Shown in pieces: positions 5,736-58,023 of a stretch of 64,000 bases of DNA. Source of the DNA: an uncultured Verrucomicrobiota bacterium (GTDB lineage Bacteria; Verrucomicrobiota; Verrucomicrobiia; Palsa-1439; CAYGDP01); contig CAYGDP010000005.1 of the NCBI GenBank assembly GCA_964348665.1, positions 29,131 to 93,130 on the forward strand, written 5' to 3'. Below the pieces are notes generated by a model that was not told the DNA's origin, did no database searches, and worked only from the letters and a program-made list of their open reading frames with translations. Position 1 is the stretch's first letter. Each line of letters opens with the position of its first letter. Position numbers and translations under genes: made by a program.

Positions 5736-6452
5736 TCATCTCGGGTTTGACGTCAATACTTGATAACCTCGGCTTACGGTTTCTTCAGCCGTCTTGCTTG
5801 GTTCGCGTCCACCAGCGCCTTCGCGGCGCGGGACAAACGCGACTGTGATCCAGCCCGCTTTTACCCAATCTTCGGCGTAATTTGCTGGCAGCCCGGTAGC
5901 GACAATTTTTGGCAACGTCGCGCCTGCTTGGCGCACGTCATCGAAGAGAGTCATTTGGATGGGCAGAAAATTGATGATTAATTGCGCATTCGGGTTGTCG
6001 TTCATCGCCGTTTGCAAGTCGCTCCAGATGAGCATTCCATTGCCCATCGAGATCGAGGGGCGCGCGGCATCAAAAAGCCTTGTCGTAATGTTTGGTGAGA
6101 GTCCTTTCTGGAGTCCCTCCAACTGTGCTTCCTTGATTATTTTTTCTCGGGGACTATTATCCGTAATGCTTTTCGACCAGGTAAATACGAGCACGTCTCC
6201 GCCTTGCGGTAACAACTGACTGGCGCGTTGTCCCATGACCTCGCCGAGCGCTCTGACCCATTCGCGGTAGCTGGTGTCCTCGGCTTCCGGCGTGGGTCGG
6301 GACGGGAAAATCCAGGAGAGGATTACCGCTATGGTGAGAAGTGTGGCAGATGCCTGTACAGGAAGTTCCCCCTGTCCGCGCGACTTTTTATAATTCCAAA
6401 AAGATACGCACGTCAGAATTGTGAAGATGAGAATGAAAAAATACCAAATCAC
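5736..6452 (-). CDS. Hypothetical membrane-anchored protein
   Basis: 238-aa ORF with one N-terminal TM helix (IWYFFILIFTILTCVSFW). No family recognised. Tightly packed in the operon, 3 bp from the upstream gene. Confidence 0.7.
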   Translation of the reverse strand: MIWYFFILIFTILTCVSFWNYKKSRGQGELPVQASATLLTIAVILSWIFPSRPTPEAEDTSYREWVRALGEVMGQRASQLLPQGGDVLVFTWSKSITDNSPREKIIKEAQLEGLQKGLSPNITTRLFDAARPSISMGNGMLIWSDLQTAMNDNPNAQLIINFLPIQMTLFDDVRQAGATLPKIVATGLPANYAEDWVKAGWITVAFVPRREGAGGREPSKTAEETVSRGYQVLTSNPR

Positions 6453-6454
6453 GG

Positions 6455-7156
6455 CTAAAAATCGTACCAGTTTGCTCTAATATCGCCAAATGTGCGATAT
6501 GCTACGTGGCCATCGGCAAACGCCCAATTTGCAAATCGCTTAAAAGGATCAGTTACCGTAGGGGAATGGTTTTGTCCCCATTCGACGTCCCATGGGCAGT
6601 TGCAAGCGTTCCACGCCTGGTTTTGGCAAGTACATCCTGCCGCCGCGCGTGGTCCAGTGCTGGCCGTGCGATATTTCCACTCGTCAATCAGCACGGCTTC
6701 GGAGGAGCGTTTCACAACGCCGGTGGGTTTTCCTGCCGCTTGACCGTTATACCAATAGTTACTGTCCGCGGTCGGGGTAGGATTATAGCCGCCTCCTCCA
6801 GAGTATTCGATGGCGAGAGGACACTGGAACACGCTAAGGTTCGCGTCTTTCGTCTTGAACATATAACGCTTGATTTCGTTGATCCAGCAGGGATTGATTG
6901 TGTCATAAGGGACGGAGTCGCCGCCTTGGGATGGGTACACCTTAAAATCGTTTGTGTAAACGATACAGGCCAGAGCGAGCTGATGCATGTTGCTGGCACA
7001 GGTAACGTTGGCAGCACGGCGCTTGGCTGCCTCCATGACAGGGAATAACATCCGCGCTAGCAGCAGGATTACTGCAATGACGACCAGCAACTCGACCAGC
7101 GTAAAACTATTCTCTTGGCGCTGACATCTTGGCGGAATGGCCATGACTACCTCCAT
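6455..7156 (-). CDS. Prepilin-type N-terminal cleavage/methylation domain protein (DUF1559-like pseudopilin)
   Basis: 233 aa with a pilin-like leader/helix (FTLVELLVVIAVILLLA) and a C-terminal FADGHVAY (H-X9-DG-type) motif. Confidence 0.88.
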   Translation of the reverse strand: MEVVMAIPPRCQRQENSFTLVELLVVIAVILLLARMLFPVMEAAKRRAANVTCASNMHQLALACIVYTNDFKVYPSQGGDSVPYDTINPCWINEIKRYMFKTKDANLSVFQCPLAIEYSGGGGYNPTPTADSNYWYNGQAAGKPTGVVKRSSEAVLIDEWKYRTASTGPRAAAGCTCQNQAWNACNCPWDVEWGQNHSPTVTDPFKRFANWAFADGHVAYRTFGDIRANWYDF

Positions 7157-7677
7157 CCTTTCCTTCGCGGCGATTCCACCCGAACGCCAAATAGTTGTTC
7201 GTTATTGACAGAACCCACTGCCTTGAGATCGAAATTTGAGCGTGAACTTCGCACCGTTTTACCAAAGCAACTCGTTAACATGCTGCAAAAACCGAACAAT
7301 TTAGCCTTCATCGGTGTTTCGATTCCTTTCTATTCTCGCTTCCTTACATCCAAAACACGATGATGTGAATGGATAATCCTGCAAAAAATAATGTACAATC
7401 CTCTCATGTAATTCGCTGGCAAATATTCGTGGTGGGAGCACTTAACTGTGGTTTTGTACAACAGTTCGCGCCACTTAGAGTCAGGAATAAAAGGCACGCA
7501 ATAATCACGATAAGTGTAATGACACCCTGTTATTTGACTTAATGTAATCGAAAAGCCGCTTGGGTGGAGAGGTTTTTTACTTGTGGTTTTTCCCGTTTCT
7601 TTCATGTCGAATTCACTATATCGTTTTCTGCTTGTATACTCGACGAGTTACTTCTATCATCTATTCGGAAAAAGCAA

Positions 7678-8550
7678 ATGTCCAAATCCGTAAAAGTTGT
7701 GTCTTTTTCAGCAAAACGCCGTCGGAAGACCCGACAACCGCCAAGAAATTACTTCACCAATCTTAGCGGCATCGCGTTTCCACGTCTCGTAATCCACTCG
7801 GTCGGTTACCTGCCTCGGTGCCGTGATTGGAATTACGACCGCGTTATTAGTCCGTTCTGGCGGATGTATTACAACTCATGCGCCGGCAATTATGTCCTAT
7901 CGGGAGGCAAACGATACGATATGGACGATTGTCGCGTGCTGATGATTCCTGAGAACGTTGAGTTCACCACGCGAAGCAACCCGCACGCGCCGCATCTCTA
8001 CAGCCATTTTTCCATGCTGCCCTCACGATCATGGTCGCCAACACAGCCCTATTGGATTTCCGTGGATCCATCGTTGCAGGAAGCCTTGGGACAACTTCGT
8101 TCCTTTGCTTTGCAGACTTCGTCCCCGGAACAACCCCAGCGGCTCTTTCATGCCGCGTCGGTCGTCTTGCACATGTGTCAGTTGCGCGCGCCGCTGGGGC
8201 GAAAGAAGGTATGGCCGGAAAAACTAGTGGGCCTGATCGAAGCCATCGAAGGATCGCCGGCGGCCGAGTGGTATTGTGCCACGATGGCGCGACAAGTTGG
8301 GATGAGTGCGGACAACTTCGCCCGCTGGTTCAAACACAATGTCGGAGTGACTCCAGCACGCTACGTGGTTCATAGTCGCGTACGACGAGCCTCGCAATTG
8401 TTGACAGACACGAATCGGAAGCTGGACGATATCGCCGCTGAAGTGGGATTTCCGAACCGGTATTATTTTACGCGCGTGTTTACCAACCTCATGCAACGTG
8501 CGCCGGCGCGATATCGAGGGGCGTACCGGGAAATTTTCAGGCGGCGATAG
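7678..8550 (+). CDS. AraC family transcriptional regulator
   Basis: C-terminal double HTH (MSADNFARWFKHNVGVTPARYVVHSRVRRASQLL...IAAEVGFPNRYYFTRVFTNLMQRAP). The ATG at 7678 is preferred over the ORF-track start at 7564. Divergent from the 7156-464 operon across a 520-bp AT-rich region. Confidence 0.9.
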   Translation: MSKSVKVVSFSAKRRRKTRQPPRNYFTNLSGIAFPRLVIHSVGYLPRCRDWNYDRVISPFWRMYYNSCAGNYVLSGGKRYDMDDCRVLMIPENVEFTTRSNPHAPHLYSHFSMLPSRSWSPTQPYWISVDPSLQEALGQLRSFALQTSSPEQPQRLFHAASVVLHMCQLRAPLGRKKVWPEKLVGLIEAIEGSPAAEWYCATMARQVGMSADNFARWFKHNVGVTPARYVVHSRVRRASQLLTDTNRKLDDIAAEVGFPNRYYFTRVFTNLMQRAPARYRGAYREIFRRR

Positions 8551-22544: not shown

Positions 22545-22736
22545 CAGGGACACACGGCCTCGTGCGTCCTACGAGAGCCGAGTAGGACAAGGCAATCTGT
22601 ATGTAGCGGCGGTCTATGACCGCCGATAGCATGAATCAATAATCCAAATCGGCGCTCGCAGAGCGCCGCTACAATGTAATTTACTCTCGAAGGCCTGAAA
22701 AGCCGAAATAAAATAGCCTAGGGCGTCAGCCCTAGG
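22545..22736. repeat. Cluster of hairpin/REP-like elements between convergent pepA and nnr
   Basis: Hairpin gtcctac/gtaggac (22566-22588). Nested hairpin gtagcggcg ... cgccgctac (22603-22672) with inner stems ggcggtc/gaccgcc and ggcgct/agcgcc. Palindrome cctagggc-gtca-gccctagg (22717-22736). Confidence 0.7.
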
Positions 22737-41803: not shown

Positions 41804-42064
41804 ATGTCAAGAATCTGTGAAATTTGTGGCAAGAAACCCGTGTACGGTAATGTCATCAGTCGGCGCGGTATCCGCAAGAAAAGCGGCGGTATCGGTTTGC
41901 ACGTTACCGCCATCAATCGGCGGCTCTTCCTGCCCAACCTGCAAACCGTCCGCGCGCTCGTGAACGGCGGCGTCCGCCGCGTCAAAGTCTGCGCCTCCTG
42001 CATTCGCGCCGGCAAAATTACCAAAGCTCCCGTGCGACAGAAGACTGCTACTGCTGGAAAATAG
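41804..42064 (+). CDS. rpmB: 50S ribosomal protein L28
   Basis: MSRICEICGKKPVYGNVISRRGIRKKSGGIGLHVTAINRRLFLPNLQ... Confidence 0.93.
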   Translation: MSRICEICGKKPVYGNVISRRGIRKKSGGIGLHVTAINRRLFLPNLQTVRALVNGGVRRVKVCASCIRAGKITKAPVRQKTATAGK

Positions 42065-42070
42065 GGTTGT

Positions 42071-42667
42071 GTGATGAATAGAGGATTCCTCGCAATCGCT
42101 TTTTATGCCCTCTTTTATGCTTTAATTCAGTGTCCGACGGTGCAGGGAGCGGAAGACGCAGTAACCCAAATGTCGGTAGCCCACAAACTTCGAGGTGAAG
42201 GGAAGCGCGCCGAAGCTCTTGCTGCTTATTCGAAAGTTCTGGAAAATCCGACCTCTCATCCTCACGACAAGGGTGGTGCTCAATTATGGATTGGCCACTT
42301 ATTGCGTGAAGAGGGTAAGCAAAGCGAGGCGCTGGCCTCTTATTCAAAAGTTGTGGGAATTAAGGAAGCTCATCCCCACGACCGGGGTGGGGCGCAAATG
42401 TGGATTGCCCATATTTTGCGGGAAGACAATAAGATCGCGGAAGCATTGAAAGCCTATGGCACGGTGGTTGAATGGCACGATGCGCATCCTCACGATCGGG
42501 GAGGTTCACAGAGATGGATAGGCGTGCTCTATTTCGAAGCCAAAGATTGGGTCAAAGCGCGGCAAGCGTTCGATACGGTTTTAAAAATGAAAGGTTGTCA
42601 CCCTGACGATTTGAAATTGGCCAAAGAATACCTTCAGAAAATCAATGAAGTGGATACCAATCGATAG
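42071..42667 (+). CDS. TPR-like repeat protein with a repeated HPHD(K/R)GG(A/S)QxWI motif
   Basis: 198 aa with a signal-like N-terminus. It carries 3.5 repeats of about 38 aa (SHPHDKGGAQLWIGHLLRE / AHPHDRGGAQMWIAHILRE / AHPHDRGGSQRWIGVLYFE / CHPDD). Confidence 0.8.
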   Translation: MMNRGFLAIAFYALFYALIQCPTVQGAEDAVTQMSVAHKLRGEGKRAEALAAYSKVLENPTSHPHDKGGAQLWIGHLLREEGKQSEALASYSKVVGIKEAHPHDRGGAQMWIAHILREDNKIAEALKAYGTVVEWHDAHPHDRGGSQRWIGVLYFEAKDWVKARQAFDTVLKMKGCHPDDLKLAKEYLQKINEVDTNR

Positions 42668-42699
42668 CCCATTTGTCAGAAGCGTATGCTATAGTAATT

Positions 42700-42780
42700 T
42701 GCGTTTCTTGCATCCGCGCCGGCAAAATTGCCAAAGCGCGCGAGCAGCAAACGATTACCGTTACCGCTGCGAAGAGGTAA
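42700..42780 (+). pseudogene. Duplicated fragment of the rpmB 3' end (L28 C-terminal codons) downstream of the TPR-like gene
   Basis: 42700-42737 (tgcgtttcttgcatccgcgccggcaaaattgccaaagc) matches 41990-42027 at 33/38 nt. In frame it reads CVSCIRAGKIAKAREQQTITVTAAKR-stop (taa at 42778-42780). Confidence 0.55.
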
Positions 42781-42841
42781 ATTTGGGTTTAGCCCAATTT
42801 GCATGAATTTGTTCTAAAGCTAGTCTATCCGCCGCATTTTT

Positions 42842-44002
42842 ATGATCAGGATGATAATCTTCGGATATCTGCTGGTAAATGAGATCGCGATTCTCATAGT
42901 CCCTCCGTGCGCCACGGCTCAGGTAGACCGAGTTTGGCTGACGCACAAATCGAACGCGACCGAGAGGATCGTGATCAACTGGGAATCGGCGACGCCCGGG
43001 GATTCCGTGGTTCGATACGGGGCGACGGAGAAACTTGGTAACGAGGTGAGAGTGGACGAAAACGTCACCTTGCACCATGTCGAAATTCCTCTCCGCGACG
43101 AGGTTAGCGTCTATCACTACCGTGTGTCCACGGGTGACTATCAATCGCCCGATTACACGTTTCGCGCATACCCGAAGGACGAACTTCGGGTCGCGGTGGT
43201 CGCGAATTGGCACGCCAAGCCGAAACTCGACGCGATTCGCGGAGACGATGTTCATCTCTTGCTGACGGCGGGTGATAATATTTCCGACCTGCATTCGCAG
43301 TGCGGGAAGGGCGTCAAGGATTGTGTGAAACCTTACAGTAAACTGATTGACGCGTATCCGGAAATTTTTCGTTCCACTCCGTTCCTGGCTGTGTTGGGAA
43401 ACCACGACCGCGAGATACGTCCGCGCGGCGACAAGCCTCCTGCCGAGCCGGTCTATGATGTTGATGCCACGGCATTCCGCCGGTTCTTTGCGTTGCCCGA
43501 CGACGGATGGAAGTGGCACTTCGACGTGCCGGAATTTGATGTCCGCTTCATCGCGCTCGACCTTAACCACATCCAGGATCAGGGGACGACTTGGCGGACC
43601 TGTCATCCCTTTCAGAAAGGCTCGGAACAGTTCGAGTGGTATCGTTCGTTGATGGCCGGCAAAGATCGTGGATTTGTCATCACTCTTCACAACGAAAAGA
43701 GCGACAAAATGAGACGACAAGAATCGGGAGAGTGGCATCGGCTCTTTCGGCAAGGGACGGCGGTCATTACGGGATTTGGGTATTTTGCGGAAAGGGCGGA
43801 GCAAGACGGCTTGCCGTATTTCAATACGTCCTTGAGCGGAAAGGGAGACAAATATCCCGACGCACAATCAAAGTTCCTCGAAAGTCAGGATAATTACATC
43901 CTGATGACGTTTTCCCGGAACGCGGCAGCGATGCGAGTCGAACTGAAAAATCTCGACGGGAAAGTTCTCGAACGAACGGAATTGCCCAGGAATTTCCGGT
44001 GA
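42842..44002 (+). CDS. Metallophosphoesterase (purple-acid-phosphatase-like)
   Basis: N-terminal FN3-like VINWESATPGDSVVRYG; LLLTAGDNISD and AVLGNHD motifs. The overlapping minus ORF 42761-43867 is rejected. Confidence 0.85.
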   Translation: MIRMIIFGYLLVNEIAILIVPPCATAQVDRVWLTHKSNATERIVINWESATPGDSVVRYGATEKLGNEVRVDENVTLHHVEIPLRDEVSVYHYRVSTGDYQSPDYTFRAYPKDELRVAVVANWHAKPKLDAIRGDDVHLLLTAGDNISDLHSQCGKGVKDCVKPYSKLIDAYPEIFRSTPFLAVLGNHDREIRPRGDKPPAEPVYDVDATAFRRFFALPDDGWKWHFDVPEFDVRFIALDLNHIQDQGTTWRTCHPFQKGSEQFEWYRSLMAGKDRGFVITLHNEKSDKMRRQESGEWHRLFRQGTAVITGFGYFAERAEQDGLPYFNTSLSGKGDKYPDAQSKFLESQDNYILMTFSRNAAAMRVELKNLDGKVLERTELPRNFR

Positions 44003-52541: not shown

Positions 52542-53042
52542 CTATTCGTTCAACAAATCCTGCGGGAATCCGTCGCGCGGGTCGGTGAGGCCGGCCAGCA
52601 TCGCCAACTCGCGAAACATCTTGCGCAATGCGCCCGTTTCGGTTTTGGATATTCCGTCCGTGGGGATCAAATGAAGTTGCCAGGTTTGACGGTCGAGAGC
52701 GACGCTGACAACGATACCGTCCCAAACGGTGTTTCCCGTGGGTTCGCACGAAATTGTGGGGGATTGGCCGTTAGGAGCAAATGCTTTAATGCTTTCGACG
52801 AGACGATCAACGGCTTCCGGGGATACATCGAGTCGTTTGGCAGTCCAATCGGGTTCGATGTTCCCCTTCACATCATTCCATCGTTTGGTGAGCAGCTCCA
52901 GTTTTGCGGGGCGATCATGAAATCCAAAGGCTTCGAGACGGCCAACAAGCTGGAGGTCACCGCCGCTGATTTCGTGATGGCTTGTTACGATGAAAAGCAT
53001 CTCGAGATGAATGAAATTTCGTATTGGTTCGCTCATTTGCAT
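52542..53042 (-). CDS. Hypothetical protein (no family recognised)
   Basis: 166-aa ORF with a globular-looking composition. Preferred over the antisense ORF 52533-53096. Ends 59 bp upstream of proS and is divergent from the first SLATT-like gene. Confidence 0.55.
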   Translation of the reverse strand: MQMSEPIRNFIHLEMLFIVTSHHEISGGDLQLVGRLEAFGFHDRPAKLELLTKRWNDVKGNIEPDWTAKRLDVSPEAVDRLVESIKAFAPNGQSPTISCEPTGNTVWDGIVVSVALDRQTWQLHLIPTDGISKTETGALRKMFRELAMLAGLTDPRDGFPQDLLNE

Positions 53043-53117
53043 GCAAGCGTAGCATGGCTTAGAAACGAGTCAATCACCCGTTTTGTGCGGGCTTGACACG
53101 GGCTAGTGCGCGGCTTT

Positions 53118-54176
53118 ATGGGTGGAGCGATGGATGTGTTGCAATTGAGCGTTATTTTTGTACGGACGGCTGTGGAATCTGGCACAGAGTCCGATGAATC
53201 GAGCTGGCCGGCGTTGCGCAACCACGTCCGGCGTGCGCAAAAAGAGGAGGATGAGAAAGCTAAAAAAATGCAATCGAGCCGGAATTGGATTGCCCGCGGG
53301 TTGGTCTGGCTCGGCCCTCTGGCGGTGGCAGTTTTAGCATTGGATATTACATTCTCGCCGGACAACCGATTCGAACTATGGCTTTGGTTTATCGAGTTTG
53401 CCATTTTAATCACGATGTTGGTTTTAACAGCGCGAGGGCTCGGAAAAAAAACTCACGAGGAGTGGGTGATGACTCGATTGCGAGCGGAGTTGTTGCGACG
53501 GGAAGAGTATTTGTTTCGCACGCGGCTCGGCCCGTACTTGAGCGACGCCTCTCGGGAGTGGGTTCATCAGCGCGTCTCCGGGATTCAGACCAGCGACGAG
53601 TTGTTGCGATTTACAGCGATGCAGGGCGAACGGCGGGCCAATTGGCATGATGAGTTGGCGGACGCGTGTTTCGAGAATTCGCAAGCAGTCGTGACGATTG
53701 AGCCGGGGTTTGTCGAGTCGTATTTGGATGAACGGCTGGACGATCAAATCAAATATTTTGAAGGACGCAAGTCCTTCAGCAGAATTCAAGAGTGGCGATT
53801 TGAGTTGATCTTGCAATTGGCGCTCATCGCCGCGTTGGTGCTATCCGTGTTGCGGATGATTCCAGATCACGGTGAGCCGCTTTACCGAACGATCAGCTTG
53901 GTTGGCTTGTGTTTACCCGCATTGTGCAGCGGCATCGTCGCTTGGCACGCAGCGTTTGAATATCGGCGAAATCACCGGGCGAGTGAGCAGAAACTTATCG
54001 AATTGCGCCAATTGAAATCCGATTTGGAAGCGCTGCACAAGGAAAATGCGGAGAAAACGGCGGGAGGCGTCTTGCGCATCAAACGCAAGGTTTTGGACAC
54101 GGAAGCAGTCTTGTCGCAGGAACTCTATGAGTGGTGGCTGATCATTGACGCGGCGGAACCCAAAGCCGGAATGTAA
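53118..54176 (+). CDS. 4-TM protein made of two SLATT/DUF4231-like 2-TM modules (paralog A)
   Basis: The first TM hairpin (LVWLGPLAVAVLAL / WLWFIEFAILITMLVLTA) is followed by HEEWVMTRLRAELLRREEYLFRTRLGPYL. The second module is DDQIKYFEGRKS plus a TM hairpin (LILQLALIAALVLSVL / ISLVGLCLPALCSGIVAW) plus a helix. The start is uncertain (GTG 53106, ATG 53118 or 53130). Confidence 0.7.
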   Translation: MGGAMDVLQLSVIFVRTAVESGTESDESSWPALRNHVRRAQKEEDEKAKKMQSSRNWIARGLVWLGPLAVAVLALDITFSPDNRFELWLWFIEFAILITMLVLTARGLGKKTHEEWVMTRLRAELLRREEYLFRTRLGPYLSDASREWVHQRVSGIQTSDELLRFTAMQGERRANWHDELADACFENSQAVVTIEPGFVESYLDERLDDQIKYFEGRKSFSRIQEWRFELILQLALIAALVLSVLRMIPDHGEPLYRTISLVGLCLPALCSGIVAWHAAFEYRRNHRASEQKLIELRQLKSDLEALHKENAEKTAGGVLRIKRKVLDTEAVLSQELYEWWLIIDAAEPKAGM

Positions 54177-54212
54177 GCGCAACCATCGGGGGTCTTGACA
54201 AGGACGGCGCGG

Positions 54213-55250
54213 ATGTGGATTCTCCGAGTGGCGATGTCCGAGCCCCAAAACAATTCCGCAACTTCATGCGACCCGAATTTTGACGCGCTGGAACGCGCTC
54301 GCGCGGCGCAGGATGGCATTGCCCGGAAGCATCAGAGCCGGCGGAAAGGATTGGCTTTGGTATTGCTGGCGTTGAGTGTGATCGCTGTCCTCTGCGGCGC
54401 GATGCAAGGTGCTTGGTTTCCGTTGGAGGGACATACGGAATCGCAGAAATTCATCGCGGTCGGCCTGATTCTCGTCGAGATGTTGGTGTTGGCGGGAATG
54501 TTAGTGTTGGACCGCGTGAAATACGCCGAGGCGAAACATCAGGAGTGGGTTGGGGCGCGGTTGCGCGCGGAGTTGTTGCGTCGCGAAGGGTTCCTCTACC
54601 GGGCGCGGGTCGGACCCTATCTCGCGCGGAGCGACTTGGGACAACGCGTTGCGGACCGCATCTCCCAGATTTCCACGTCAAAAGATTTGTTGTCTCACCT
54701 GTCGTTGCGCGGCGAACACGCGACCTGGCAGGATGAATTGGAAGACGAACGTCATCGAGGCGAGGAAACGCAGCCGCCGGTGGGCGCCGATCTGAATCAA
54801 TCTTTCTCATTCTATCGACAACAGCGCATTGCGGACCAGCAGGGATATTTTGACGCCAAGGCGCGCCAGTTTCAACGGCTGGATTTTCGGCTCAAGGTCG
54901 TTGCCAAGACGGTTGTGACGCTGGCGTTATTGATGAGCACGGCCCACTTTTCGCTGCTTTGGGCGGAGCAGCAACTCGCGCCACTGGCGTTTCTCGCGCA
55001 TTTTCTTCCCGCGTTGAGCGGCGCGATGATCGCGTGGCGGGAAACAGTCCAGAGCAAACGCCTCAAGATGACGTACCGCCGAAAGAGCTCGCAACTGGAA
55101 GAATTACAACGGGATTTTCGTCGACTGACCGAAAACCCGTCGCCATTTTTTTTCAAGCGATTGGTCTTGCGAACCGAAACGGTTCTCTCCCAAGACCTGT
55201 ACGAATGGTGGTTGGTGATGAACCCCGTGACGCCGGAAGGCGATCATTAG
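54213..55250 (+). CDS. 4-TM protein made of two SLATT/DUF4231-like 2-TM modules (paralog B)
   Basis: Same layout as paralog A, with HQEWVGARLRAELLRREGFLYRARVGPYL, ADQQGYFDAKAR and C-terminal VLSQDLYEWWLV (A has VLSQELYEWWLI). The ATG at 54213 has AAGGA 8 nt upstream; alternative starts are 54195 (TTG) and 54234. Confidence 0.7.
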   Translation: MWILRVAMSEPQNNSATSCDPNFDALERARAAQDGIARKHQSRRKGLALVLLALSVIAVLCGAMQGAWFPLEGHTESQKFIAVGLILVEMLVLAGMLVLDRVKYAEAKHQEWVGARLRAELLRREGFLYRARVGPYLARSDLGQRVADRISQISTSKDLLSHLSLRGEHATWQDELEDERHRGEETQPPVGADLNQSFSFYRQQRIADQQGYFDAKARQFQRLDFRLKVVAKTVVTLALLMSTAHFSLLWAEQQLAPLAFLAHFLPALSGAMIAWRETVQSKRLKMTYRRKSSQLEELQRDFRRLTENPSPFFFKRLVLRTETVLSQDLYEWWLVMNPVTPEGDH

Positions 55251-55831
55251 CGGCGGCGTGGCAATCCTTCGACGAGGACGCGGCCTTGTTCGCGGCCGAG
55301 TGACGTTGGTTCTAGGGTGCCCGGCTTGCGATTTCCCGCGAGGACAATGACGATTGGTTTGTGACGAGCGCGCGCTTCCGCAATGACCTCTGAAGTTCCA
55401 CCACGGCCTTGGGCGGGCAGGTTGTCGGACACAGCCAACAACACATCACACCTCGCCACCATCCATGTCCCAGCACGGGCGTAACTTTCCTCGCGTGACT
55501 CGGCAGCGGATAGGATTACAGTCTTTTTTGCCCGAGCCAACAAAGCATCGAAATGAATCCACGATGGCGATCCCTCCGGGCCGAAATCTTTTACATATTC
55601 CCTTCGCGGCATAGGCAACAGCGCGAGCATCTCGGCCCCGGGCAACAGTAGAATCATTTCCGCACAAACTCGATCCGCGCCCTCGGCCAATTGCGAGATG
55701 ACACGAATCTGTCGCCGCGGAAAGGCACTTCGAATCGAGGCAACCGCCTTCTCGATTCCCGAGCGCAAACGCTCCAGGTCAGCGAGTATCCGATGGCCAG
55801 TAACGGCGATGGTTAACGGGCGCGTTTCCAT
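55247..55831 (-). CDS. Stand-alone SLOG-superfamily protein (YpsA/DUF1273-like Rossmannoid)
   Basis: 194 aa. The strand-motif order matches YpsA: LTIAVTGHRIL, VISQLAEGADRVCAEM, LALLPMP, DVLLAVSDNLPAQGRGGTSEVI, PIVIV. Its start overlaps the TIR gene end by 19 bp, and its stop overlaps the paralog B stop by 4 bp. Confidence 0.65.
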   Translation of the reverse strand: METRPLTIAVTGHRILADLERLRSGIEKAVASIRSAFPRRQIRVISQLAEGADRVCAEMILLLPGAEMLALLPMPRREYVKDFGPEGSPSWIHFDALLARAKKTVILSAAESREESYARAGTWMVARCDVLLAVSDNLPAQGRGGTSEVIAEARARHKPIVIVLAGNRKPGTLEPTSLGREQGRVLVEGLPRRR

Positions 55832-57018
55832 AGAACGGGTTTTGATCCTTTTTGAGTCCCGGTGTAAGAATTATTGTCCAAGAACTGATACTTTCCCTCG
55901 GTTACCACGCCCGACTTGGAGATAATTTGAAAATTTCCATCCTTGGCGGTATAGCGGCCAGTGTCTTCGCAGACGGCAACAAACCGATACGGTCCCTGGG
56001 GGCTGGTGAACAAATTCAGCTTCCAAGTCTGACCGCTGATCACCAAATCCAAATCCCATCGGGCATCAAAACCGCTCTGGGCGATCTGATTGTATTTCCA
56101 TACGTCACCGTTGGGGTCGATCGGGGGCGGCGAGCCGTACCCAGCCGTCAAAAATATCCAAAACGCGGGTGGAATGGCATTGACCACGCGCATGGTATCT
56201 TTGCCGAGTTGGCCGGCAACGATTCGCGCTGCTTTGCCATCGGGGATGTAGTAGCAGATTTTATTGGCATCGAAATGAATCCGACCAGTTTCTTCAATGG
56301 TGCATACCCCTCGATATTTCATATCATTGTCTATGCGCGTGGTCATCTTTACCGTGATGGAGTCCGCTGCTTGCGGCGACATTTCCCATGCGCCAACGAA
56401 TTTTTGCTCATCCGATTCCGCGGGTGCGACGACGACCGATGGTTTGCCGTCCTGTGTTTGAGGTGGGGTTACAATCACGGTTGGCGGTGGGCGAGTGTTC
56501 CACCACCAAATTGCTCCGCCGAGAATGACAGCGGCAACGGCCATTGCGCCTGCTTTCGTCAGCTCGCGTTTTCGCTGCAACCGCGTGTTCGAGCGCAGCA
56601 TTTTCACGACCCGTTCAATGGCGGAATCGCTGTGTTCGTGGGAATAGGTCACGCAATTGTGGCCGGACAAATGGGAAATGGCCGATGGCAATTGATCGGG
56701 GGTGGGGATGGCAAAATCCTCGGTGCGCAACAGCACCACGTTGCGCTTGGTGGCAAACGCGTGAACGATTTCCTGCAGCACCCAGTCGTCCTCGTTCTTG
56801 CACCGCTCCAGTGAGTTGGCGGTCAGCAACAGCAAAAAATCCGGGGTGGATTCGATGGTTTTTTTGAGTGCTTCGTCAAATCGTCCCGACCGAAGCTCGC
56901 GCACATCGAGGAACACGTTGTAGCCATGGGCCGTCAGGGAGTTGCGAATCACCTGTGCCAAGGCCGATCCGCCATCGCGACGATAGCTGATGAACACATC
57001 ATACGGTTTTTCGCTCAT
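55813..57018 (-). CDS. TIR domain - single TM - extracytoplasmic beta-rich domain protein
   Basis: From the ATG at 57018: MSEKPYDVFISYRRDGGSALAQVIRNSLTAHGYNVFLD...NEDDWVLQEIVHA, a TIR with a candidate catalytic Glu. Then a KR-rich linker, a TM helix (AGAMAVAAVILGGAIWWW), a Pro-rich linker and about 230 aa of unknown fold. The ORF-track extension to 57462 is rejected. Confidence 0.85.
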   Translation of the reverse strand: MSEKPYDVFISYRRDGGSALAQVIRNSLTAHGYNVFLDVRELRSGRFDEALKKTIESTPDFLLLLTANSLERCKNEDDWVLQEIVHAFATKRNVVLLRTEDFAIPTPDQLPSAISHLSGHNCVTYSHEHSDSAIERVVKMLRSNTRLQRKRELTKAGAMAVAAVILGGAIWWWNTRPPPTVIVTPPQTQDGKPSVVVAPAESDEQKFVGAWEMSPQAADSITVKMTTRIDNDMKYRGVCTIEETGRIHFDANKICYYIPDGKAARIVAGQLGKDTMRVVNAIPPAFWIFLTAGYGSPPPIDPNGDVWKYNQIAQSGFDARWDLDLVISGQTWKLNLFTSPQGPYRFVAVCEDTGRYTAKDGNFQIISKSGVVTEGKYQFLDNNSYTGTQKGSKPVLWKRAR

Positions 57019-57133
57019 CCGGCCGATTCTAGCGGGGGTATTGGCGCAAACAAGAGCAAATCGAAAAAATCGCCGAGTCCAGCGGTTCCGATCCCGCTTG
57101 CCGAGACCGACCCCAACTCCCCGTTCAAAAAAG

Positions 57134-57169
57134 TGACATAAATTGTAACGATCGTTACAAATTATGTCA
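57134..57169. promoter_or_regulatory. 36-bp near-perfect palindrome (operator-like) in the divergent intergenic region
   Basis: TGACATAAATTGTAACGA|TCGTTACAAATTATGTCA with one mismatch; the core TTGTAACGATCGTTACAA is perfect. It lies about 115 bp from the TIR ATG and about 105 bp from the isomerase ATG. Confidence 0.6.
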
Positions 57170-57273
57170 TGGTTATTGAGGGAGGATTTACTTTGTGAAG
57201 GCTGGTAAATCATCATTGAGTTGCCGGGCGGTTTTTGCCAATCTGTGCCGTTCAACCGGAAAGGAGATCGTTT

Positions 57274-58023
57274 ATGCCACCGCCCATTGCGTTGCAGCTT
57301 TATTCCGTGAGAGATATTTTGCCGAAAGATCCAAAGGGTGTGATCCGCAAAATCGCCGAGATGGGCTACATTGGTGTCGAAACTGCCGGTTTGCCAGGAA
57401 TGTCGCTCGCCGAATCTGCCAAGTTTTACAAAGAGGTCGGGTTGATGGTGAGCAGCGCGCATTCATCGCCGCCCATTGGCGATAAAAAGAACGAGGTCCT
57501 CGATTTTGCCAAAACGCTCGGCATCAAACGTCTCGTCGGTGGACGTGGTCCTGACGATTTCAAGACGGTGGAAAAAATCAGGGCGACCTGCGAAGGATTT
57601 AATGTGGCAAGCCGGGCGTGTCGCGAGAACGGCCTGGAATATGCGATTCATAATCATTGGTGGGAGTTCATCACGCTCGATGGGAAGCCAGTTTACAAGT
57701 ATATGCTCGAATATCTCGAACCCCATGTCCAGTTTCAGATTGATGTCTATTGGGTGCAAACCGGCGGCTGCAATCCCGCGGCGGTGTTGAAAGAAGTGGG
57801 CAAACGCGCGACCTTACTACACATCAAAGACGGACCATGCGAGCGTGAGAAGGTGATGACCGCTGTGGGCGACGGCAAAGTGGACATGGGGGCCATCTCC
57901 AAGGTTGCGCAGGCGGATTGGTGGATCGTCGAACTGGACCGGTGCGATACCGATATGATGGAGGCCGTACACAAGAGCTACAAGTTTTTAACATCGAAGG
58001 GATATACGCGGGGGAAGCGATGA
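57274..58023 (+). CDS. Sugar phosphate isomerase/epimerase (xylose-isomerase-like TIM barrel)
   Basis: MPPPIALQLYSVRDILPKDPKGVIRKIAEMGYIGVETAG. AAGGAG RBS lies 6 nt upstream of the ATG at 57274. Confidence 0.88.
   Translation: MPPPIALQLYSVRDILPKDPKGVIRKIAEMGYIGVETAGLPGMSLAESAKFYKEVGLMVSSAHSSPPIGDKKNEVLDFAKTLGIKRLVGGRGPDDFKTVEKIRATCEGFNVASRACRENGLEYAIHNHWWEFITLDGKPVYKYMLEYLEPHVQFQIDVYWVQTGGCNPAAVLKEVGKRATLLHIKDGPCEREKVMTAVGDGKVDMGAISKVAQADWWIVELDRCDTDMMEAVHKSYKFLTSKGYTRGKR

Follow-up and report, generated by a model that had tools for sequence, protein, structure and literature searches.

A compact five-gene TIR–SLOG–SLATT cassette in a Verrucomicrobial genome, a candidate split variant of Thoeris-like signalling

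The cassette and its proteins

A 64,000-nucleotide stretch of DNA from an uncultured Verrucomicrobiota bacterium (contig CAYGDP010000005.1, positions 29,131 to 93,130; hereafter the window) carries a compact five-gene set without prior annotation. It encodes a TIR protein with one predicted transmembrane (TM) helix, a stand-alone protein of predicted SLOG fold, two paralogous four-TM (4-TM) proteins with SLATT domains and a further protein, X166. The features of this cassette, in window coordinates, are as follows.

52542–53042, minus strand: X166, a soluble protein of 166 amino acids (aa), assigned by recurrence as the fifth conserved gene of the module
53106–54176, plus strand: SLATT_A, ThsH-like double-SLATT 4-TM protein with an N-terminal DUF4231 and a C-terminal SLATT_1 domain; likely start ATG at 53118 or 53130
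54195–55250, plus strand: SLATT_B, paralogue of SLATT_A with the same architecture; likely start ATG at 54213
55247–55831, minus strand: stand-alone SLOG-fold protein, YpsA-like, 194 aa, predicted with AlphaFold2 (AF2) and Foldseek
55813–57018, minus strand: TIR protein, 401 aa, with a SARM1-like TIR domain, one TM helix and a predicted extracytoplasmic β-domain (Pfam TIR_2, AF2)
56614–56997, minus strand: TIR domain, residues 8–135 (Pfam, phmmer, Foldseek)
56770–56772, minus strand: predicted catalytic Glu83 (WVLQE), aligned with the SARM1/TIR-1 Glu
56494–56562, minus strand: single TM helix, about residues 153–175 (hydropathy scan), preceded by the basic stretch RLQRKRELTK
55816–56412, minus strand: all-β C-terminal domain, residues 203–401, predicted to be extracytoplasmic and a candidate sensor (AF2 confidence score pLDDT about 90)
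57142–57170, minus strand: tentative promoter-like site ahead of the TIR–SLOG pair, ATGACA-17-TACAAT (10/12)

Our initial annotation of the window had described four of these genes, and the list of open reading frames (ORFs) places all four where it did: two SLATT ORFs of 356 and 351 aa on the plus strand and the SLOG and TIR genes on the minus strand. The two overlaps that it reported were likewise found on the sequence. The SLOG gene starts within the TIR ORF, at an ATG (55831) 19 nt before the latter's end (...CTATGGAAACGCGCCCGTTAA); the TIR reading frame is open over 55813–57462 and gives 401 aa from the ATG at 57018. SLATT_B and SLOG converge in a 4-bp stop-to-stop overlap in which CATTAG/TTA is shared at 55247–55250, with the TAG stop of SLATT_B at 55248–55250 and the TAA stop of SLOG on the complement of 55247–55249. 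The description of the genes as having no intergenic space was nearly right: SLATT_A and SLATT_B are separated by 18–36 bp, depending on the choice of SLATT_B start codon. The start that had been placed near 54213 agrees with the database copy of SLATT_B (P0104, 345 aa, start 54213). The initial annotation had overlooked the fifth conserved gene, the kinship of the TIR domain to SARM1, and the TM helix and predicted extracytoplasmic domain of the TIR protein.

Both 4-TM proteins belong to the SLATT group ('SMODS and SLOG-associating 2TM effector domain' in Pfam) by profile and by their paired TM hairpins. SLATT_A scores 39.3 bits against SLATT_1 (PF18181; cut-off 26.3) and 29.1 bits against DUF4231 (PF14015; cut-off 24.7), SLATT_B scores 45.4 and 31.5 bits, respectively, and both pass the NCBIfam SLATT_1 threshold (SLATT_A with 71.5 bits). 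Four hydrophobic helices are arranged 2+2 in each protein, at residues 61–79, 91–109, 234–252 and 262–280 of SLATT_A by hydropathy, with the third helix of SLATT_B slightly below threshold. The two genes are paralogous, as had been proposed, sharing 31% identity over their whole length (about 348 aa; E = 2e-41).

The TIR protein scores 49.2 bits against Pfam TIR_2 (cut-off 28), and a phmmer search of the PDB returned Caenorhabditis elegans TIR-1 and human SARM1 as its closest relatives (E = 1.7e-26). Foldseek with the AF2 model placed SARM1 TIR structures on top, at 34–38% identity. Glu83 of WVLQE aligns with the Glu of WVHKE in TIR-1 and SARM1 and is invariant in our alignment A2, so that both fold, above threshold, and predicted catalytic residue identify the domain as a SARM1-like NADase TIR. 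The AF2 model of the whole protein (pLDDT 79.8) contains a long helix over residues 131–175, and the basic stretch that precedes the TM helix points to an N-in, C-out topology. Foldseek with the β-domain gave weak matches to the periplasmic lipocalin-like domain of ToxS (E = 2–3e-3). A word-indexed search with the C-terminal domain yielded no matches; an exhaustive HMMER search found it in 44 representative clusters, most of them TIR_2–TM–domain proteins of about 390–440 aa. Other carriers are one Ser/Thr kinase–TM–domain protein and several signal-peptide or lipoprotein forms. Given the TM helix and these partners, the β-domain is predicted to lie outside the membrane and the TIR domain inside. 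In P0133, P0127, P0140 and P0144, the β-domain follows a Ser/Thr kinase and TM segment or forms part of secreted, lipoprotein-like proteins, in some of them tandemly repeated.

The 194-aa protein is predicted to adopt a SLOG fold of the YpsA-like kind. Its AF2 model, from an alignment with 48 homologues, has a pLDDT of 94.6 and a predicted template-modelling score of 0.91; Foldseek placed YpsA (2nx2) first with E = 7e-8, followed by ShosA, DprA, TRPM5, a MoCo carrier protein and LOG, and the SLOG domain of ThsA (bound to 3'cADPR, an isomer of cyclic ADP-ribose (cADPR)) at rank 30. The predicted structure is that of the Rossmannoid SLOG superfamily. No Pfam, NCBIfam or PADLOC model scored above its cut-off, and the protein thus falls outside the curated sequence families (YpsA/DUF1273, YAcAr, LD-cluster and SLOG-cluster models); its match to Pfam YAcAr is sub-threshold (E = 0.026). 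Sub-threshold Pfam matches among 49 family members were to YAcAr (9), Nuc_deoxyrib_tr (8) and YpsA (1), in keeping with a YpsA-like kind. The initial domain assignments therefore hold, through Pfam for TIR_2 and SLATT_1/DUF4231 and through the fold for SLOG.

We found 103 homologues of this SLOG protein. Residues A49, G51, D53, Y117, D136, G142, G145, T146 and G183 are invariant in the family alignment, and H13, R14, E50, D53, R54, D136, Q141 and T146 are the polar positions that are invariant or nearly so. The catalytic signature of LOG, PGGxGTxxE, is not kept; the consensus reads QGxGGTGxIV. A C-terminal tail, AGNRKPGTxEPTxLGxEQG, is present in 35 of 110 stand-alone forms and in none of 65 fused forms. 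With no curated model to detect them, such loci probably escape current defence-system finders. No copy of the module was found in the plasmid and phage collections, where plasmids gave only weak SLOG matches; one of these coincides with a gene whose annotation reads DUF1273 domain-containing protein.

Recurrence of the module in other genomes

Relatives of the SLOG protein are widespread in environmental phyla, encoded in at least 494 stretches of GTDB species genomes and at least 376 of metagenomes. From the matches listed in these scans we took 80 loci each and added 7 exact-protein look-ups, giving 167 loci that were annotated with hidden Markov models (HMMs) grown from the window's own proteins; 80 loci (832 kb) fetched through prolyl-tRNA synthetase (ProRS) served as controls. 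A TIR ORF was found in 68 of the 167 SLOG loci and in none of the 80 control loci, in which ProRS itself was the sole match (Fisher p = 1e-14). The TIR–SLOG–SLATT arrangement is not due to chance; the linkage is real.

Homologues of the cassette genes are neighbours in several other loci. In one of them (L168), the same four genes as in the window recur: a TIR gene (71% identity) and a SLOG gene (57%) converge on a pair of SLATT genes, one 49% identical to SLATT_B and the other 47% identical to SLATT_A, its orthologue. L168 comes from a related organism: the adjacent AP_endonuc_2 gene is 81% identical to that of the window, as against 47–71% for the cluster genes. In unrelated flanks, a second locus (L003/L004) has an X166-like gene, a TIR gene (57%, β-domain included), a SLOG gene (57%, with the same 19-bp overlap) and, convergent with these, one SLATT gene that is 45% identical to SLATT_B, its orthologue, and 31% to SLATT_A. 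A third (L097) has a TIR gene, a SLOG gene and one SLATT gene, all co-directional. An independent route led to the same association: of the six distinct contexts in which TIR–TM–β-domain proteins were found solely through the β-domain, four (L300/301, L302/303, L305 and L306) have SLOG–SLATT genes next to these proteins.

X166 had no matches in Pfam, NCBIfam, PADLOC, PHROGs, PDB sequences or phage genomes, and its homologues are confined to the three loci with the exact module. The X166-like gene of L003 (39% identity) differs in position from that of the window, being directly upstream of the TIR gene and overlapping its start. The L168 homologue (6132–6628) lies on the same side as in the window and is split into shorter frames, as either a pseudogene or an assembly error.

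More often, the SLOG and SLATT parts occur in one protein. In 60 of 164 non-redundant loci, the same double-SLATT module carries the SLOG domain at its N-terminus, in Pfam-confirmed proteins of about 510–660 aa. Of these fused loci, 31 have 2.5 kb or more of flanking sequence on each side, and 16 of the 31 contain a TIR gene within that distance. Such fusions speak for a physical partnership of SLOG and SLATT, and the division into generator, sensor and effector that had been proposed for the window fits both the fusions and the co-occurrence with TIR genes. The split form is thus one form of a widespread, more often fused family. Stand-alone SLATT proteins beside stand-alone SLOG proteins form a clade of their own, with 28–49% identity to SLATT_A and SLATT_B compared with 21–27% for the fused forms; this makes the split form a lineage in its own right and not an assembly artefact. 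L007 (5435–8555), L059 (5466–8549), L112 (5427–7607) and L131 (2975–5275) encode both forms a few hundred bases apart, a SLOG–SLATT fusion and a SLOG on its own. A 707-aa neighbour in L001, considered as a possible fusion of the two SLATT genes (356 + 351 aa), proved to be a P-loop ATPase.

The closest stand-alone SLOG proteins are often paired with AAA+RyR proteins (about 880 aa) and TrkA_N+RyR proteins (about 610 aa). Such SLOG/RyR neighbourhoods, the commonest setting of the family's stand-alone SLOG proteins, recur in L010, L013 (5296–8001 and 8556–10370), L016, L027, L030, L021, L169 and many more loci, frequently with TIR genes nearby, and the literature examined holds no description of them.

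Relation to known systems and genomic setting

The nearest characterised relative is type VII Thoeris, in which a TIR protein (ThsB) and a SLATT effector (ThsH) have been validated, with canonical cADPR as the signal (Yirmiya et al., bioRxiv, Dec 2025, 10.64898/2025.12.03.692087). The validated Pseudohongiella ThsH (L254, 2533–3417) has SLATT_3/DUF4231 and SLATT_1 domains, matches the SLATT HMM of the window family end to end (E = 5e-24) and matches SLATT_B by BLASTP with E = 4e-5. As in the window, a TIR gene adjoins a 4-TM protein with SLATT_3/DUF4231 and SLATT_1 domains, and SLATT_A and SLATT_B are full-length, distant homologues of ThsH. However, type VII is a two-gene operon of TIR and ThsH only, with a small soluble TIR (144 aa in L254), whereas the cassette adds a free SLOG protein, another SLATT paralogue and the 166-aa protein; its TIR is of the SARM1 type and predicted to be membrane-anchored with an extracytoplasmic domain, and SLATT_B is only about 20% identical to ThsH. 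The cassette therefore shares the ThsH-type effector of type VII but not its operon. The gene order, overlaps and conserved co-occurrence agree with the general Thoeris pattern of a TIR clustered with a sensor-bearing effector.

Type I Thoeris (ThsB with a SIR2–SLOG protein, ThsA) likewise joins a TIR generator to a SLOG domain, and the ThsA SLOG is a structural match of the window SLOG. The SLOG domain of type I Thoeris binds a cADPR isomer. The window differs in having SIR2 in none of its cluster proteins, in having a membrane protein and not an NADase as the likely effector, and in a SLOG that is nearer to YpsA than to ThsA. Nor does any cluster protein have the Macro domain of the type II TM effector. 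Against type III, there is a single TIR gene that scores 47.8 bits with ThcB4 (cut-off 220), and the SLOG protein has no NCBIfam match. CD-NTase/SMODS or pyrimidine cyclase genes, which would indicate CBASS or Pycsar, were not found in the cluster or in the scanned flanking ORFs (40–60 kb). On these counts, the layout lies outside Thoeris I, II and III, CBASS and Pycsar, and the cluster has no SIR2, Macro, CD-NTase or cyclase component, as had been stated from the outset. In PADLOC-DB 2.0, neither the SLOG nor the SLATT proteins are covered by a model: the TIR protein hits only generic TIR models, and SLATT_A, SLATT_B, SLOG and X166 gave no match at E <= 1.

Fused SLOG–double-SLATT proteins (about 540 aa) combine the same SLOG family with the same double-SLATT module and are often encoded beside TIR genes, including TIR–TM–β-domain genes. 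By contrast, the window has the two domains on separate, convergently transcribed genes, and its SLOG has the C-terminal tail specific to stand-alone SLOG proteins. Passages of PMC9503650 and PMC7159879, later papers by the Aravind group, that cite Burroughs et al. 2015 state that the SLOG–SLATT association gave SLATT its name, predict SLATT to be a membrane effector regulated by derivatives of ADP-ribose (ADPR) and note TIR–SLATT neighbourhoods. YpsA-like SLOG proteins have been proposed as cADPr sensors or as enzymes that cut the 1'-ribosyl-adenine bond (PMC9503650). The concept is thus already known, and the novelty first claimed for the cluster was overstated, given that links between SLOG, SLATT and TIR were predicted in 2015 and TIR with SLATT was validated in 2025; the split layout itself is real. 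What sets this variant apart is the stand-alone SLOG, the duplicated ThsH-like effectors, the TM-anchored SARM1-like TIR with its predicted extracytoplasmic domain, and the fifth gene.

A predicted Thoeris configuration named 'SLOG and 4TM' is listed in Table S2 of 10.64898/2025.12.03.692087 and also sets a TIR gene beside a SLOG and a four-TM effector. Its Ca. Nitrospira nitrosa-type example is a different family from the window's, as judged from a relative locus (L251) and not from the IMG record itself: the likely effector in L251 is a 373-aa protein with a LOG-like SLOG and 4TM, in which we detected no similarity to the window SLOG or SLATT. In L251 (3892–6969), the 373-aa SLOG+4TM gene is followed by a TIR gene and then by a 179-aa YpsA-like stand-alone SLOG, so that two SLOG genes surround one TIR gene.

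Two animal proteins resemble the cassette in part. The window TIR matches SARM1 and TIR-1 with the catalytic Glu aligned, and the SLOG model matches the N-terminal domain of TRPM4/5. TRPM2-type channels have a SLOG-like N-terminal domain gated by ADPR, and a SLOG-type domain would be coupled to a membrane-permeability device in both cases. The membrane domains are unrelated, and the likeness is an analogy of logic and not orthology of systems.

The cassette is flanked by housekeeping genes, with SecDF, Tgt and ProRS on one side and AP_endonuc_2, LolA-like and YbeY genes on the other. The ORFs checked in the 40–60 kb part of the window included no defence genes. The window ProRS is 66–68% identical to those of Verrucomicrobiia metagenome-assembled genomes, indicating a Verrucomicrobial origin, and in none of the 36 Verrucomicrobial-type ProRS-relative loci checked does the cluster adjoin ProRS. 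A search for insertion boundaries found no flanking direct repeats and no anomalous GC content.

Promoter-like sites in the region numbered 3, compared with 2.8 expected in shuffled sequence, and a terminator scan likewise did not exceed the level of shuffled sequence. Between the divergent TIR and AP_endonuc_2-like genes lies a near-perfect 36-bp palindrome, TGACATAAATTGTAACGA|TCGTTACAAATTATGTCA, at 57134–57169, which overlaps the minus-strand promoter-like site. Its core is similar to operators of the LacI/GalR type. The palindrome has no conserved counterpart ahead of the TIR gene in either L168 or L003, and it may belong to the neighbouring sugar-isomerase-like gene. Elsewhere in the window, an Rfam Acido-Lenti-1 small RNA motif (RF01687) lies at 22691–22736 on the minus strand (56.4 bits; gathering score 37), and GC content dips to 0.47 at 7001–8000 and to 0.50 at 42001–43000 from a mean of about 0.55; the second dip takes in a TPR-repeat ORF (42071–42667).

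A signalling model and its alternatives

We put the probability that the five genes form a Thoeris-like, TIR-based nucleotide-signalling conflict system, leading to abortive infection or growth arrest, at roughly 0.55; most likely, the cluster is a new split variant of type VII-like anti-phage signalling. The generator would be the membrane-anchored TIR protein, with its cytoplasmic SARM1-type NADase domain and extracytoplasmic β-domain. A cue associated with infection or with the envelope would cause the TIR domains to assemble and to convert NAD+ into an ADPR-derived signal. SARM1-type TIR domains produce ADPR and cADPR, and the validated TIR and SLATT systems use canonical cADPR, which suggests that the signal would most probably be canonical cADPR or a close isomer. 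As the sensor, the free YpsA-like SLOG would bind this nucleotide and, once liganded, engage the cytoplasmic face of the two ThsH-like double-SLATT proteins, which would then assemble, probably into a hetero-oligomer, and breach the inner membrane. X166 may be a lineage-specific accessory, possibly a regulator or chaperone.

Several observations weigh against this model. The cluster sits amid housekeeping genes and not in a defence island. A TIR gene lies within 2.5 kb in no more than about one quarter of the stand-alone SLOG loci, and many stand-alone SLOG proteins are paired with AAA+RyR or TrkA_N+RyR proteins instead. Type VII ThsH works without any SLOG, and a SLOG sensor is thus not strictly needed. 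Furthermore, two 'SLOG and 4TM' operons gave no defence when tested in Escherichia coli (10.64898/2025.12.03.692087), although a relative of one of them suggests that their proteins are of a different family.

A possible but more tentative alternative is an outside-in TIR pathway with the topology of a Toll-like receptor. Here, the lipocalin-like domain would respond to a signal at the envelope or from outside the cell, for instance phage adsorption, DNA injection or a small ligand, and act through the single TM helix on the cytoplasmic SARM1-type TIR. The resulting cADPR-type product would be read by a free, exchangeable SLOG adaptor that docks by its tail on a hetero-oligomeric ThsH-like pore, and the same adaptor clade would also plug into AAA+RyR and TrkA_N+RyR outputs. 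If so, the SLOG would be a modular second-messenger receptor acting in trans.

The main rival, which we consider somewhat unlikely, has the ThsH-like SLATT proteins sensing the TIR product directly, as ThsH appears to do in two-gene type VII Thoeris; the free SLOG would process or buffer the nucleotide by conversion, degradation or sequestration, so that activation has a threshold or autoimmunity is avoided. In favour of this reading, ThsH needs no SLOG for its function, and pockets for a ligand are predicted between SLATT protomers (10.64898/2025.12.03.692087). A processing role for SLOG would agree with SLOG clades that include enzymes such as LOG, with the proposal of YpsA-like SLOG proteins as both sensors and enzymes (PMC9503650) and with the invariant or near-invariant polar residues kept in the family. 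L251, with its stand-alone YpsA-like SLOG besides a SLOG+4TM protein by one TIR gene, and the pairing of the same stand-alone SLOG clade with unrelated RyR-domain partners point the same way. However, the LOG signature is not kept, and N-terminal fusion of SLOG to double-SLATT argues for the direct physical coupling typical of sensor–effector pairs.

Less likely still, the TIR protein would itself be the effector, with outside-in activation leading to SARM1-like NAD+ depletion and the SLOG and SLATT genes forming a secondary or independent module. Its closeness to SARM1 and TIR-1, self-contained NAD+-destroying executioners, fits such a role, as do the many bacterial TIR proteins that deplete NAD+ in CBASS, Pycsar and SPARTA (10.64898/2025.12.03.692087) and the lack of any other signal-generating enzyme in the cluster. 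Yet TIR, SLOG and SLATT are inherited together, with a TIR/SLOG translational overlap in two lineages, and TIR–TM–β-domain proteins occur repeatedly beside SLOG–SLATT genes, which would be unexpected were the TIR sufficient alone.

Equally improbable is a role other than anti-phage defence, in which an extracytoplasmic cue would act through a TIR-made nucleotide on membrane channels in a physiological transmembrane or envelope-stress pathway, programmed cell death or inter-bacterial conflict: it is favoured by the housekeeping flanks with no defence genes among the ORFs checked, by a sensor domain common to a Ser/Thr kinase receptor and lipoproteins, and by the apparent vertical retention of the cluster by the same AP_endonuc_2 gene in a related genome, but disfavoured by the patchy distribution (none of the 36 ProRS loci), by the unrelated context of the L003 module, by the greater divergence of the cluster genes than of the one neighbouring gene compared, and by the closest characterised relatives being defence proteins (ThsH and ThsB-like TIR proteins).

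TIR-based signalling is common to bacterial, plant and animal immunity. Under the Thoeris-like model, the window presents a three-tier layout in which a generator, a free SLOG receptor and ThsH-like membrane effectors are carried on separate genes; unlike in the fused proteins, sensor and effector are thereby open to separate study. A membrane-tethered SARM1-like TIR raises the possibility that some bacterial TIR systems sense envelope events and not cytoplasmic ones, and a SARM1-type TIR working with a SLOG-coupled permeability device would parallel the logic of animal SARM1 and TRPM2.

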